From the NCBI GenBank assembly GCA_934177485.1, contig CAKPPF010000001.1, forward strand, positions 256,618 through 320,617: DNA of 64,000 nucleotides, in the 5' to 3' direction. Each line of letters opens with the position of its first letter. The stretch's first letter is position 1. The notes under the pieces are model-generated. The model did no database searches and was not told where the DNA came from. It saw nothing but the letters and a program-made list of their open reading frames with translations. Shown piece by piece: positions 30,351-41,743 of the stretch. The DNA is from an uncultured Clostridia bacterium (lineage in GTDB: Bacteria; Bacillota; Clostridia; TANB77; CAG-508). The translations under genes were made by a program, and so were the position numbers.

Positions 30351-30467
30351 AAAAGATGCGTTCTAATACAATTATCATACGAATACGATTAAACAAATGT
30401 AATCATATTGAGGCTTTGCTTTATGCCCAAAGTCTCAATAGAAGAACGTGCAATGGAACTTGAATAG
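30351..30467 (+). repeat. Left direct repeat of the island: duplicated spoIIID leader plus a truncated 14-codon 5' fragment
   Basis: The 112 nt at 30351-30462 align without gaps to 41632-41743 with 10 mismatches by hand count. ATG 30423 reads MPKVSIEERAMELE and then TAG. Confidence 0.85.
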
Positions 30468-30856
30468 AGTATATAACAGGATAGTGGATGAATAAAAAAG
30501 ATTATAATAAAGTATTAATTGAAATTTAATAGATAGAGCAAACTAATTGAATAAAATATTATTTGAATAAGATGGAGTAGTTATAGATAAAGTTTACTAT
30601 ATATACATACTCTACTAGTTGGTATTCTAGGAAGAAGTAAAAGTATGGCAGCTATAATTCCAACAATTACAATGTTATGATTAGCAGGTGAAAATATGTT
30701 TATATCTGATGTAAAAGGAAAATTAAATATATACTACAGAAAAACTAAAAGAACTTTGGCAAGATTTAATTGCAATAGCTTATATAGTAAAGAGTAAAAT
30801 ATTGGAATTTTATAAATAATTTAAAATCCACGTTGTGAAGTGACGTGGATTTGCTT

Positions 30857-31012
30857 TTACGATGAGTATTTCACCATGGCCTGAAATGCAGAACCATTGT
30901 AATATACAAAGTTGCCGAAAGGTTGATAGCCTTCGGCTATTTTTTCCCGTACCTTGTCAGTCAGACCGACGGGGGTAGTAGCATGAACCATTATGTAATC
31001 AATAATTTTCAT
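30857..31012 (-). CDS. Small hypothetical protein (DUF1737-like), compositionally foreign
   Basis: 51-aa ORF with a perfect AAGGAGG RBS and about 40% G+C by hand count in a much more AT-rich background. A terminator hairpin lies at 30828-30856. Confidence 0.5.
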   Translation of the reverse strand: MKIIDYIMVHATTPVGLTDKVREKIAEGYQPFGNFVYYNGSAFQAMVKYSS

Positions 31013-31229
31013 TGTAAATTCCTCCTTGAGAGGCGTTGCTTCACTCAACACCTTGATAAATATATTATAACATATTTAAGCCACAAAATCAATTTTATGT
31101 AAAATACGCTATTATAATAAATTATAGAAATAAAGAAATTCCAATAGAACAAATTCAAAAATTATTTGAATACAAGAAAATTGATAAAATAAAAGTTTTA
31201 GAAACTTTTATGAAGGAGAAAAATAAGAA

Positions 31230-31752
31230 TTGACAGATATGCTCGTAGAGCTAATACAAAACTTTATAGGAGGTGCAGAATCAATACTAAATTCGCTATT
31301 TAATAGTATGTTAAATTTAGTATTTTTTATTAAAAGAGAATTAACTTATATACCTGAAGGTCAGGGGTTAGGTGTATCAAAAGTAGATTTTAACAGTATT
31401 TATAAGATTGTAGTAGATTATGCTACATATCTATTAGTTATAGTCTTTATTGTGAAAGCAGTAAAGATTTATTTTATGATGAGAGATGGAGATAATGAAC
31501 AAAATCCAATTCATTTTGTAATGGATATGTTTAAGGCAGTTACTGTAATGATATGTTTTAAAGAGATATATTCAATTGGTGTTGGAATTGTTTCATCATT
31601 TTAAACTCTATACTAAATGTCATAAACATTGATAGTATGAATTTAGCAGAGGCTCTTTCTAATAATATACGAGGAAGTATTTTTACAGCAGTTGCTTGTT
31701 TGGTACTTTTAATTTGTTGGCTACTTTTAATATGCCAATTTATTGTTTTATT
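31230..31752 (+). pseudogene. Fragmented membrane protein gene, possibly a TrbL/VirB6-like conjugation component
   Basis: A 124-aa hydrophobic ORF with a TTG start, then a frame break, then a 49-aa hydrophobic continuation (from 31638) that runs into the IS end. The family call is a weak recollection. Confidence 0.3.
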
Positions 31753-32070
31753 AAAACCCCGAGATTGTCTCGGGGTTCGGTAAAGCTTTCAGCGATGAGT
31801 AGACATAGAAAATCCCTTTATATATAATTTAAATTGCGACTGATAGGAAGCATTTAAATATATTGAAGGGAGACGTTTAAATTGAAAAATATCAAAGTAA
31901 ACGATATACAAAGTTTATCACATACTACATGGAATTGTAAATATCACATAGTTTTTGCACCAAAATATAGGAGAAAAGTTTTTTATGAAAGCAAAAGATT
32001 GGAAATAGGACAAATATTAAGAAAACTATGTGAATGGAAAGGAAAAACCTCCGGCTACGCCGGAGGAAAT
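31753..32070 (+). mobile_element. Internally deleted IS200/IS605-family element (miniature derivative)
   Basis: Terminal hairpins aaccccgag-attgt-ctcggggtt (31755-31777) and cctccggc-tac-gccggagg (32048-32066). It retains only the first ~54 codons of TnpA ('WNCKYHIVFAPKYRRKVF') and ends before the HUH and Tyr motifs. Confidence 0.7.
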
Positions 32071-32209
32071 TTATTATATAGTAGAAAATTCAAACAAAGG
32101 ACAACTAAAGTCGTTTTGCTTTGACATTATTATGAATGGAGATGAGAGCAACATTATATTACATTAATATTGCGTAAATATTACACAAATATAAAATTTT
32201 GTACAGATA

Positions 32210-38985: not shown

Positions 38986-39013
38986 AAATTAGAAAAAAAA
39001 TTGGAGGAGAAAT

Positions 39014-39988
39014 ATGAGGAATAGGTTTGAAGATATTGAAAATTTTATAATGGATATTATGGAGAAAGTAAAGGCTGATAATAAAGATATTGAAAAAATT
39101 GATATTTATAGCAAGTTATCTAGTTATGGGTTGACTGATGAAGAAAGAAAAAATAAAGGTACATTAATAGACATTCAAGATAGATTATATAAAAATTTTA
39201 GATATGAAGTTTTTTCACGTTGTTGGAAGTCTAGAAACAATTATTGGCTAGTATTTAGAGAGGAATCAATTGATGATATGATAAGAACAGGAACATATTT
39301 TAATCAAGAAGCAATTAAAATTTATATTCCTGCTAAAGAAGAAGATATGTACGAAATTGCAAATGGCTTATTTGAATTCCTTGATAAAAATTACATAGAA
39401 AATGATACAAAAATGTCAGCTGATGTTAGAGCAGACGATTTGGTTGTTAGAGTATTTTCACAAAGAGATGCTTCTTATATTTCAGAATATATAAATAATA
39501 ATTTTCCGAATAGAACTTTATCACCAAATCCTTTTATGATAAATGATGGAACGGTCGGAATAGCTTCTGATGGTAAACTCTCATATAATGAGAGGGTTGC
39601 CGGATTTTTAGCAGATTATTTTAGTGATTTAAGGAATAAGGGACAATTGGAAAATGCAAATATGAAGAGTTTTAAAGAATACATGGAAAAAATGAGGAAT
39701 GAGATTTATTCTGATAAAACTGCAATGAAAACTTTCCTACAAAAAAAAGATAAACATTTCGATAGTGTAAGTGATTTAGAATATTTATACGATAATAAAA
39801 ATATTATGGATTTTATAATAATAGCCTTAGATAAAGAAAAAGGTATAGAAGATTTTAATAAACATTGGGAAGAGATTAAAACATCTGAAAGTAAGAAAAC
39901 TACTAGAGATAATATAAAAGAGTTACTAGATTCTTTTGAAAGAGAGCAACCAAGTAATAATGATGATCAAGAATTTGGAGAAAAATAG
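39014..39988 (+). CDS. Hypothetical cytoplasmic protein
   Basis: 324-aa ORF with a GGAGGAG RBS. No family confidently recognised. Confidence 0.7.
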   Translation: MRNRFEDIENFIMDIMEKVKADNKDIEKIDIYSKLSSYGLTDEERKNKGTLIDIQDRLYKNFRYEVFSRCWKSRNNYWLVFREESIDDMIRTGTYFNQEAIKIYIPAKEEDMYEIANGLFEFLDKNYIENDTKMSADVRADDLVVRVFSQRDASYISEYINNNFPNRTLSPNPFMINDGTVGIASDGKLSYNERVAGFLADYFSDLRNKGQLENANMKSFKEYMEKMRNEIYSDKTAMKTFLQKKDKHFDSVSDLEYLYDNKNIMDFIIIALDKEKGIEDFNKHWEEIKTSESKKTTRDNIKELLDSFEREQPSNNDDQEFGEK

Positions 39989-40026
39989 GTAATAAAATAA
40001 AGAATAAAACAAGGAGAGGTAAAGAA

Positions 40027-41388
40027 ATGGAAGAAAAGAAACAAATAAAAATCAGCTTAAAAACTGTGATTATTTTATTTATTATATTACTAGGGTTATT
40101 AATAGGCATATATTTTTTAATAGTAAACCTAACAAATAAAAAATATATTAATTATGGCGCTATTGAGATTGAAAATAGCGAAATATCAGATGAAACAATT
40201 ATACAATTATTGGATGTTGATGCAAAAGATTTTACAAATTTCAAAGATAACTTTATAGGTGCTAATGTAGTAATTGAAGATAAGCCTGAACAAACAAAGC
40301 GTTCAACTTTTATAATAGAAAGCGACACAGAAATTAGTAATTCAAAGAAAATAGAATTAAAAAACCAAGCTCAAGAAAACTTTAAGTTACTTGAAACATA
40401 TATTCTAAATTGCGATAAAGATATAGCACAAAGATTATTAGAAGGATTGAAAAATCCAAATTTATATACCTATACAAATAAAAAATTAACACTAATTGAA
40501 AACTCCGATGACATAAATGTATCATCGGAAACATTGAATAAATTCTATGCATATGTTTGCTCAGGATTAATAAAAAATCATTTTAATTTTGAAGAATATA
40601 GTATAAATATATTAAATATAGAAAAAAATAATGATATTGATATTTATATGACAATAAATAATAAATATTTTATAACTTTTGAATATGGTGAATCGGAATG
40701 TTATTTTTCTTTCTATAAAGGAACAGAATATAATATAAATAAAAAATATTTAGTATTTGATCATATTGGAGGATATAATTCTTTAAAATCTTGGTATAGA
40801 ATTGGAACAATGACATCAATTGGAACAATGACATCAATTGCTAAACCGATTATATATTTATATCCAACAGAAGACACAGAAATATCTGTGAAATTATTAA
40901 AAGATGAAGATTTAACTTGTTCATACCCTAAATATAAAGATAAATGGAAAGTATTAGCACAACCTAATGGAAATTTAAAGGATTTAAATACAAATAGACA
41001 GCTATACTCTTTATATTATGAAAGTAAGAGTAACTCAGAATTTAAAGTTGAAAGCAAAGGATTTGTGATAAAAGGCGTAGATACAATTAAATTTTTAGAA
41101 GAAAAACTCGCTATATTAGGATTGACAGAAAGAGAAACTGAAGAATTTATTATTTATTGGCTACCAAAGTTAGAGGCTAATAAATATAATTATATCAGAT
41201 TTGCTACTACTGATGAAATAAACAAAAACATGCCATTAGAAATAAATCCAAGTCCAGATACAATTATTAGGGTTTTAATGATATTTAAAGGTTTAGATAA
41301 TCCTATTGAGGTTCAAGAGCAACAATTAACAACACCAGAAAGAAAGGGTTTTGTTGCTGTTGAATGGGGAGGAACTGAAATAAAATAA
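40027..41388 (+). CDS. Membrane-anchored hypothetical protein with a conserved-looking C-terminal globular domain
   Basis: 453-aa ORF with an AAGGAGAGG RBS and one N-terminal TM segment. It contains an 18-bp perfect tandem duplication (40801-40836). Confidence 0.7.
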   Translation: MEEKKQIKISLKTVIILFIILLGLLIGIYFLIVNLTNKKYINYGAIEIENSEISDETIIQLLDVDAKDFTNFKDNFIGANVVIEDKPEQTKRSTFIIESDTEISNSKKIELKNQAQENFKLLETYILNCDKDIAQRLLEGLKNPNLYTYTNKKLTLIENSDDINVSSETLNKFYAYVCSGLIKNHFNFEEYSINILNIEKNNDIDIYMTINNKYFITFEYGESECYFSFYKGTEYNINKKYLVFDHIGGYNSLKSWYRIGTMTSIGTMTSIAKPIIYLYPTEDTEISVKLLKDEDLTCSYPKYKDKWKVLAQPNGNLKDLNTNRQLYSLYYESKSNSEFKVESKGFVIKGVDTIKFLEEKLAILGLTERETEEFIIYWLPKLEANKYNYIRFATTDEINKNMPLEINPSPDTIIRVLMIFKGLDNPIEVQEQQLTTPERKGFVAVEWGGTEIK

Positions 41389-41631
41389 AAGGCATTTTTA
41401 ATACAAAATATTTTTCCAACAACAGAAAAATATGTAGAAAGTAAATACCAAAATAAAATGCAAGATGTTGAAATAACTGAAGTATTGAAAAGAAAAATTA
41501 TACATGCATCAACCAATGTAATAAAACTAGCTAAAAAAGGTATTAATATTCCGTTTTACGATATTATAGAAATGAAAAATGTACTACTGAAAAAATAATA
41601 GGGCTATTATTACTAAAAACAAAGATAGCTA

Positions 41632-41743
41632 AAAAGTTGCGTTCTAATACAACCTTCATACGAATACAATTAAACAAATGTAATCGTATGGAGGTTTTGC
41701 TTTATGACCAAAGTTTCAATAGAAGAACGTGCAATGGAACTTG
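41632..41743 (+). repeat. Right direct repeat of the island (leader and 5' end of the intact spoIIID)
   Basis: Pairs with 30351-30462 (102 of 112 identical, no gaps). Confidence 0.85.

Follow-up and report, generated by a model that had tools for sequence, protein, structure and literature searches.

In the mother cell, SpoIIID acts as the switch between the programmes of sigma-E and sigma-K. Interruption of sporulation genes by mobile elements is well described, with skin in sigK (SpoIVCA), SPbeta in spsM (SprA/SprB) and gin in gerE as examples (PMC5595907, PMC6957869, PMC4191935). The present analysis concerns the spoIIID gene of an uncultured, very AT-rich gut Clostridia bacterium, which lies in a 64-kb stretch of DNA (the window, meaning the whole stretch analysed) next to a 12.4-kb island and whose promoter and 5' end are present twice. 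Phage 21 (lambdoid) and e14, both at icd, regenerate the end of their target gene upon integration, as do elements located at the 3' end of a tRNA gene. The island (29235-41644) is read here as what decay has left of an integrative conjugative element (ICE), together with an accessory block formed by a helicase gene and three further genes, and the repeat as a scar, a reading to which we give slightly better than an even chance. The original event is, with the same modest degree of confidence, taken to have been a site-specific integration that regenerated spoIIID. No earlier report of spoIIID as a target of mobile elements was found in the literature searched. Such elements are known in sigK, spsM, gerE and other mother-cell genes, and spoIIID would thus add a familiar type of event at a new target.

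The locus resembles skin, SPbeta and gin in that a spore-former has a mobile element at one of its mother-cell sporulation genes, and relatives of the window element adjoin a split cotJC gene, in one locus with a large serine recombinase close by. As with skin and gin, the window element is no longer a complete mobile element. Unlike in these systems, however, the window spoIIID (41704-41973) is unsplit and has its own promoter, its 5' part is duplicated, no 3' fragment is found elsewhere, and neither a recombinase nor a directionality factor is present at the locus. Since the full promoter-gene unit stays in place, no excision is needed for spoIIID. The outcome at this mother-cell gene is therefore different, as the gene would be kept whole through duplication of its promoter and 5' end, with the island then decaying in place. 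The integrations at icd and tRNA genes are similar in another respect, as a truncated copy of the target stands on one flank, the complete 89-amino-acid (aa) gene on the other, and imperfect direct repeats bracket the element. In contrast to them, it is the promoter and 5' end that are duplicated here instead of the 3' end, what is element-derived cannot be distinguished from what is native, the segment being invariant among lineages, and the truncated copy does not lie against the native flank. Finally, the window shares with the Gram-positive ICEs that encode TrbL_4, PrgI, a VirB4-like protein, a sortase and an adhesin the fragments of trbL_4 and of the coupling-protein gene, in the same order and orientation, whereas the integrase, the relaxase and most secretion genes are gone. 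The window allele is an ICE in relic form only.

The two copies of the repeat, 30351-30462 and 41632-41743, align without gaps at 102 of 112 nucleotides (nt), which is exactly the count of ten mismatches given in the preliminary description of this DNA, and two randomly drawn 112-nt segments of the window match at 35 +/- 5 positions. The weaker similarity that had been noticed beyond these limits is also real, as a repeat finder returned one family of two copies, 148 nt long and 86% identical (30326-30473 and 41607-41754, spacing 11281), and the blastn comparison suggested at that time gave E = 2e-48. The upstream parts of the two copies (41607-41644 and 30326-30363) are identical at 31 of 38 positions, with a local alignment score reached by none of 300 shuffles. 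No third copy was found within 64 kb. A candidate for one at the left junction (29223-29271, aligned with the upstream part of the repeat) was rejected, because 58 of 300 shuffles scored equally high. The open reading frame (ORF) of the left copy translates as MPKVSIEERAMELE and, as reported before, stops at 30465-30467, after 14 codons. The right copy continues into an intact SpoIIID of 89 aa, likewise in line with the earlier reading, with matches to PF12116 (1.4e-38) and TIGR02844 (7.9e-37, over the curated cut-off). A dispersed intergenic repeat of about 139 nt, 87-92% identical and with an internal inverted repeat, occurs at 41983-42121, 25286-25424, 15591-15729 and 5438-5549, with partial copies near 51511-51555 and 769-819, and the island-free allele L006 is without 61 nt of the copy downstream of spoIIID. 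The sequence of this family is distinct from that of the spoIIID repeat, and it starts past the spoIIID stop codon. Therefore, the concern raised in the preliminary description, that the duplication could be one more member of the dispersed family, does not apply, and the repeat is specific to spoIIID, with no more than two copies in the window.

The alleles used for comparison were public metagenome contigs that encode an identical SpoIIID. Among the ten placements listed, seven have either the helicase block or the last of its genes ahead of spoIIID and three (L006, L007 and L008) are without the island. In these three alleles, 63 nt lie between the Mbeg1-like gene and the spoIIID that comes next, and in the alignment window position 29234 is connected to 41645 via 26 unrelated bases. 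Relatives with an empty site, which had been proposed as a check, are thus found, and the island is a presence/absence segment between the Mbeg1-like gene and spoIIID. The island-free arrangement is probably the ancestral one, because it occurs in the L007 lineage, whose Mbeg1-like gene is just 87% identical to that of the window. The strains are recombination mosaics in this region, the identity of the window to L006 varying from 91% to 99.7% along its length. The repeats had been thought to bound an island of about 11.3 kb, which is not the case: compared with the island-free alleles, the variable DNA is 29235-41644, and the left repeat sits 1.1 kb inside it and not against the native flank. 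The DNA between this flank and the left repeat (segment X, Table 1) gave no family matches and no similarity to conjugative-element loci, and it is absent in L006, L007 and L008. In L014, L015 and L016, segment X is longer by 905 nt, located between window positions 29609 and 29666. The extra DNA (L014:2471-3375) holds ORFs of 104 aa and 162 aa without a family and is flanked by a 58-nt direct duplication, and window 29609-29666 resembles the product of a deletion between the duplicated segments seen in these three alleles.

The divergence between the two copies of the repeat is concentrated in the left one. Over positions -59 to +39, the left and live copies are identical at 89 of 98 sites, and the left copy is 7-10 points more distant from every outgroup than the live copy, which means that its differences are private to it. 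In its -10 box an otherwise invariant A is replaced by G at 30387, its ribosome-binding site (RBS) is changed from GGAGG to TGAGG at 30409 (the first G), and several bases of the conserved inverted repeat of the leader are altered. The folding energy calculated for its leader is -5.6 kcal/mol (z -0.3), compared with -19 kcal/mol (z -6.7) for the live copy. The left copy is thus a dead, decaying relic. Because the private differences include the -10 A, the RBS G and the hairpin, the divergence of about 9% represents drift of a dead copy and not a heterologous working replacement. The idea that an incoming element had supplied such a replacement, about 9% diverged, for the leader and 5' end of the gene has therefore to be given up.

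The DNA to the right of the dead copy contains the wreckage of a conjugative element. Gene families were assigned through Pfam, NCBIfam, PADLOC and PHROGs profile searches, and these agree with the inventory of the island made previously, which comprised a foreign small gene, a broken membrane-protein gene, a gutted IS200-type element and a helicase operon. The surviving element DNA amounts to about 0.8 kb of matching sequence over a span of 1.3 kb. Its first part is colinear with L117 in blastn (30476-30537 with 7304-7366, 79%; 30582-30786 with 7435-7652, 73%) and also matches L123 and L129. The second part has 77% nucleotide identity to L117 9269-9783, and the 124-aa TrbL_4 fragment encoded there matches PF19597 (1.6e-18) over profile positions 1-117 of 276. 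Full-length relatives of trbL (P0123, 79%; P0139, 63%) are found within a type IV secretion module with a coupling protein, pilin, TrbL_4, PrgI, a TraC-like protein, N6_N4 methylase, a VirB4-like ATPase, M23 peptidase, sortase and adhesin, and full conjugation modules are present in L117-L136. The window remnants have the same order and orientation as this module, with 73-79% DNA identity, which indicates that they belong to the same family of conjugative elements.

Two junctions delimit these remnants. On the left, element DNA begins 3 nt past the repeat, and on the L117 numbering this start corresponds to a position roughly 6.5 kb into the element. Since the interior of the element abuts the dead copy, the 13-codon end of the repeat is a later, secondary deletion junction and not an att boundary, and the att-like character formerly ascribed to it is not retained. 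On the right, trbL is cut at 31740-31744, and two other alleles, L004 (ERZ1749116) and L137 (OIZL01002018.1), part from the window exactly there. L137 is 99% identical to 24521-31744, and the 3.1 kb that follow are colinear with L117 9269-12361 and hold the next transfer genes, so other strains retain here genes missing from the window allele. In L004, different DNA again stands to the left of this IS200 relic. The mobile-element content that had been suspected is thus identified as conjugative-element wreckage, of which L137 holds a fuller version at the same locus. The IS200 element at this junction is not complete either: its fragment matches Y1_Tnp (1.5e-8) over profile positions 2-40 of 121, a Y1 transposase of about 120 aa, as expected from the 121 positions of the model, is missing, and the element is a relic. 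It has a hairpin at 32048-32066, and its leader RNA reaches 50.1 bits with Rfam STnc490, below the gathering score of 56. The 64-aa ORF between the two element parts matches PHROG 2036 (1.1e-6), and a terminator-like hairpin lies at 30937-30914. No recombinase was detected, whether within the island, among the genes called from 19.9 to 52 kb or among the ORFs of at least 150 aa scanned in the rest of the window, which agrees with the preliminary description. As the locus holds no recombinase, we can only infer site-specific integration.

The right copy is different, as it is part of a live gene whose sequence is nearly invariant. From 41645 on, there is no fixed difference between island-bearing and island-free alleles, and the single-nucleotide polymorphism (SNP) at 41820 is polymorphic in both. 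The stretch 41645-41976 differs from L007:6933-7264 by one SNP in 332 nt, whereas the neighbouring Mbeg1-like gene is 13% diverged, a comparison that is biased by the choice of contigs for an identical protein. The near-invariance of spoIIID and its leader may reflect an unusual constraint at the nucleotide level or a recent exchange of this small gene. As the stretch is the same even in L007, its identity with the island-free alleles cannot prove that the right copy is native, and the right edge of the foreign DNA lies at or past 41645. Upstream of this point, the two kinds of allele differ. The -35 box reads GTTCTAAT in island-bearing and CTCATAAT in island-free alleles; both window copies read GCGTTCTAAT at this position, and the approximately 38 nt before it are common to both copies and unrelated in the island-free alleles. 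In an alignment of about 20 related species, the -35 box of spoIIID occurs in two natural types, TCATAA or GTTCTAA, the -10 box is conserved as GAATACAAT or, in more distant species, GCATACAAT, and the RBS is GGAGG or GGGGG. We take both forms of the -10 box to fit the sigma-E consensus. The statement that promoter-proximal DNA of this regulator had been exchanged was therefore correct for the -35 box and the 38 nt upstream of it, which differ by allele type, but not for the leader and the 5' codons, which are unchanged from 41645. The exchange at the regulator is limited to the -35 box and upstream DNA.

Table 1. Features of the spoIIID island and its flanks (coordinates are positions in the 64-kb window).
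Feature	Position	Strand	Description
Mbeg1-like gene, left flank	28159-29262	+	PF11187 6.1e-84; last ~9 codons, from 29235, unlike island-free alleles
Segment X	29235-30325		Island-bearing alleles only; 96-aa membrane ORF 29868-30158
Left repeat, dead spoIIID 5' copy	30326-30473	+	Upstream part 30326-30363; promoter/leader 30364-30422; 13 codons 30423-30461
Element remnant 1	30476-30786	+	Gene for 194 aa, 3' part only; coupling-protein gene (T4SS-DNA_transf), beginning only
Small GC-richer 64-aa ORF	30857-31051	-	Inside the element remnant; PF08410 (DUF1737) 1.1e-4, 22.5 bits, below cut-off 24
Element remnant 2	31212-31743	+	5' two thirds of the trbL_4 gene; 124-aa ORF 31230-31604; cut at the IS200 relic
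IS200-type relic	31740-32130	+	End hairpins, leader RNA, 80-aa transposase fragment; marks a deletion junction
Superfamily 2 (SF2) helicase, 2112 aa	32281-38619	+	ResIII 1.3e-21, DEAD, Helicase_C; N-terminal region of ~600 aa without family
Two genes, 116 aa and 324 aa	38635-39988	+	No family above threshold (Pfam, NCBIfam, PADLOC, PHROGs)
453-aa membrane-anchored protein gene	40027-41388	+	No family assignment; 3498 homologues
Spacer	41389-41606	+	46-aa ORF 41458-41598; frame open from the stop codon of the 453-aa gene onward
Right repeat, upstream part	41607-41644	+	Runs into the first -35 box bases (GCGTTC); island-bearing alleles only
Live spoIIID unit	41645-41973	+	Rest of promoter, -10 box GAATACAAT, RBS-covering leader hairpin, 89-aa gene 41704-41973

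Relatives of the window element were found at other genomic locations. In L119 (754-960) a related element adjoins cotJA, cotJB and a 68-aa piece of cotJC, and in L121 (572-937) it adjoins a 121-aa piece of the same gene; together the two pieces are about as long as the full cotJC. Near the left end of the element in L120 (1-34) there is a large serine recombinase of 521 aa, the sole recombinase seen beside a relative. Judged from these arrangements, the related element looks like one that interrupts cotJC. In L123 (1523-1744), an ORF of 73 aa, which over its first 43 residues is a member of the SpoIIID family (41% identity to the window protein), has spoIIP on one side and, on the other, a related element with its left end. 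This ORF has a consensus sigma-A promoter (TTGACA-17-TATAAT) and its own terminator, and for this reason L123, considered as a proof that the element targets spoIIID, was downgraded to weak evidence. For the SpoIIP of L123, the loci of related genomes gave no match. L126, which shows how an element of the L123 type ends on the right, contains neither a piece of spoIIID nor a serine recombinase there, just an unrelated UPF0236 (PF06782) gene of 448 aa and housekeeping genes.

The favoured course of events begins with a conjugative element, or DNA travelling with it, that would have recombined inside the spoIIID 5' region. This recombination, presumably carried out by the element's own recombinase, would have put the promoter, leader and first codons on both sides of the inserted DNA, with a 3'-truncated copy on the left flank of the element and a complete promoter-gene unit on the right flank. 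As spoIIID is needed for sporulation, selection for sporulation would keep only those insertions that leave a complete promoter-gene unit. One deletion then joined the dead copy, at codon 14, to DNA from within the element; it removed at least 6.5 kb of the element's left part and, presumably, the recombinase. A second deletion, associated with IS200, took the transfer genes to the right of trbL, and the dead copy drifted. The helicase block may have belonged to the element. Homologous recombination in the flanks would have spread the island among strains, and the haplotype would now spread or be lost in the same way.

Several observations weigh against this course of events. A recombinase is absent from every variant seen at the locus and from the 64 kb of the window. 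The 9.4-kb helicase block, the 453-aa gene and the right end of the island show no link to the conjugative element, and the homologues of the 453-aa gene are chromosomal. An allele in which segment X is followed by an intact spoIIID, as expected before integration, was never seen; a scan of JGI metagenomes for the pattern of upstream segment plus core returned one contig, L137, which bears the island. Moreover, 1.1 kb of unexplained DNA (segment X) separates the left copy from the flank of island-free type, and both repeat copies hold the upstream segment that island-free alleles lack. Among the relatives, the right end of a 97%-identical element (L126) has no spoIIID nearby, and the ORF in L123 may not be a truncated host spoIIID. 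Finally, the duplication in the window ends at codon 13, a secondary junction, and that in another species (L028, described below) at codon 43, and the insert of the latter is unlike the element.

In another possible, though less probable, origin of the duplication, foreign DNA with a spoIIID 5' fragment was inserted through homology, without site-specific targeting. A single Campbell-type crossover, or an insertion with one homologous and one illegitimate end, would in either case duplicate the shared segment, and the source DNA could be chromosomal, mobilised from a donor with the element beside spoIIID. The locus in L028 (CAKOVK010000001.1, a metagenome-assembled genome (MAG) from the Hadza; 7924-10127) is informative in this respect, as the spoIIID sequence between -98 and codon 43 occurs twice there, over 225 nt with 97-98% identity. 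The insert of 1.75 kb contains a helix-turn-helix gene and genes for two membrane proteins, one with DUF4190 and one of 181 aa, and the truncated copy adjoins the native asd. All five differences near the 3' end of the truncated copy are at third codon positions, which means that two slightly differing functional alleles were joined around the insert, and this happened with neither a recombinase nor mobile-element genes in it. The duplication in L028 is independent, younger and of a similar kind, and it illustrates such an event at an early stage. A link between its insert and the element was rejected, since comparisons of the insert with the conjugative element, with the island of the window and with L123 gave no similarity. 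An origin through homology would also agree with the different codons at which the duplicated segments stop in the window and in L028, with the near-invariance of leader and gene (one SNP against 13% in the neighbouring gene), owing to which long runs of perfect homology are available, and with the upstream DNA, foreign to island-free alleles, in both window copies. However, it makes the presence of the element family in another sporulation gene, cotJC, a coincidence, and it needs a free DNA molecule that already has a spoIIID fragment. The start of the repeat 97-98 nt upstream of the ATG in both the window and L028 is also a point against it, although selection for an intact promoter explains this equally well.

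A quite unlikely possibility is that the element formerly split spoIIID and was excised in the mother cell as skin is, that the recombinase was then lost and an intact promoter-gene unit restored from another strain by homologous recombination, and that the old 5' half of the gene remained as the left repeat. The split cotJC pieces beside the element family, the well-documented elements in mother-cell genes (PMC5595907, PMC6957869) and the mosaic nature of the strains, with their 91% to 99.7% identity to L006, would fit such a history. Nevertheless, a 3' fragment of spoIIID was not found at any element end, the rescue would have to insert rather than replace and to bring the block of the 453-aa gene along, and the shared upstream segment fits a single duplication better. 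A last view, that the repeat matches by chance or belongs to the dispersed family and that the island is ordinary chromosomal DNA, to which the AT-rich genome and the 139-nt repeat adjoining spoIIID could lend some colour, has next to no probability and is already refuted by the E value of a repeat with two copies only, by its span over promoter, RBS and codons of spoIIID in register, by the different sequence of the dispersed family and by the island-free alleles.

The leader of spoIIID may be of importance for the fate of insertions in this region. An inverted repeat at 41652-41695 pairs the -10 region (GAATACAAT) with the RBS and is conserved at the same position in 31 species. In the alignment of these related species, 78% of the cells are paired, compared with 35-49% with slid partners, and nine pairs vary on both sides. 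RNAalifold predicted no structure for the leader alignment, the hairpin being supported when it is named explicitly and in single-sequence folds. Such a hairpin could stop the translation of transcripts reading in from upstream. It is tentatively proposed, as an idea about which we are rather doubtful, that the spoIIID 5' region is a recurrent landing site for conjugative elements and possibly other DNA, that insertions survive there only by duplicating the whole promoter-leader-5' unit, and that the hairpin keeps SpoIIID translation blind to read-in transcripts. If this is true, spoIIID would be a new attB for sporulation-gene recombinases, which would act by gene regeneration and not by splitting and excision. 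In a MAG of an uncultured Clostridia bacterium (L051:10001-10680), two spoIIID paralogues with 46% identity stand in tandem. Twelve IMG/VR contigs encode relatives of SpoIIID, and a link to phages was dismissed, as the 5' region is duplicated in none of them.

The greater part of the island is occupied by the helicase block. The 2112-aa helicase also matches PHROG 16, DNA helicase (1.6e-29), and its gene contains five tandem repeats of 312 nt (104 aa) at 36282-37943, whose number varies among strains, the allele in L004 encoding 1800 aa. A role of the block as a defence system was considered and rejected, as PADLOC gave a weak match (7.7e-9) that covers just 50 residues of the core of a type IV restriction helicase. 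No relatives of the helicase beyond RadD (1.4e-4) were found in PDB, IMG/VR contained no relatives of the helicase or of TrbL, and the matches of annotated plasmids and phages to the island were limited to the generic helicase core and the IS200 fragment. Full-length homologues of the 453-aa protein (P0003, P0006 and P0009) are linked to neither a helicase nor spoIIID, and the use of this gene as a marker of the element was abandoned because its homologues occur in ordinary chromosomal contexts. The C-terminal part of this protein, about 180 aa encoded by 40850-41388, is 75-88% identical in thousands of otherwise differing proteins of 250-610 aa (3498 matches) and corresponds to no family in Pfam.

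At least three structural variants of the island, together with island-bearing and island-free alleles, coexist in human gut metagenomes. They are usable for timing the decay of an integrated element and for tracing the missing recombinase. A second presence/absence polymorphism was observed 2 kb downstream of spoIIID, where a block of 834 nt (44084-44917) with a ParE-toxin gene pair is present in the window, L002, L003 and L004 and absent in L001, L005 and L006.

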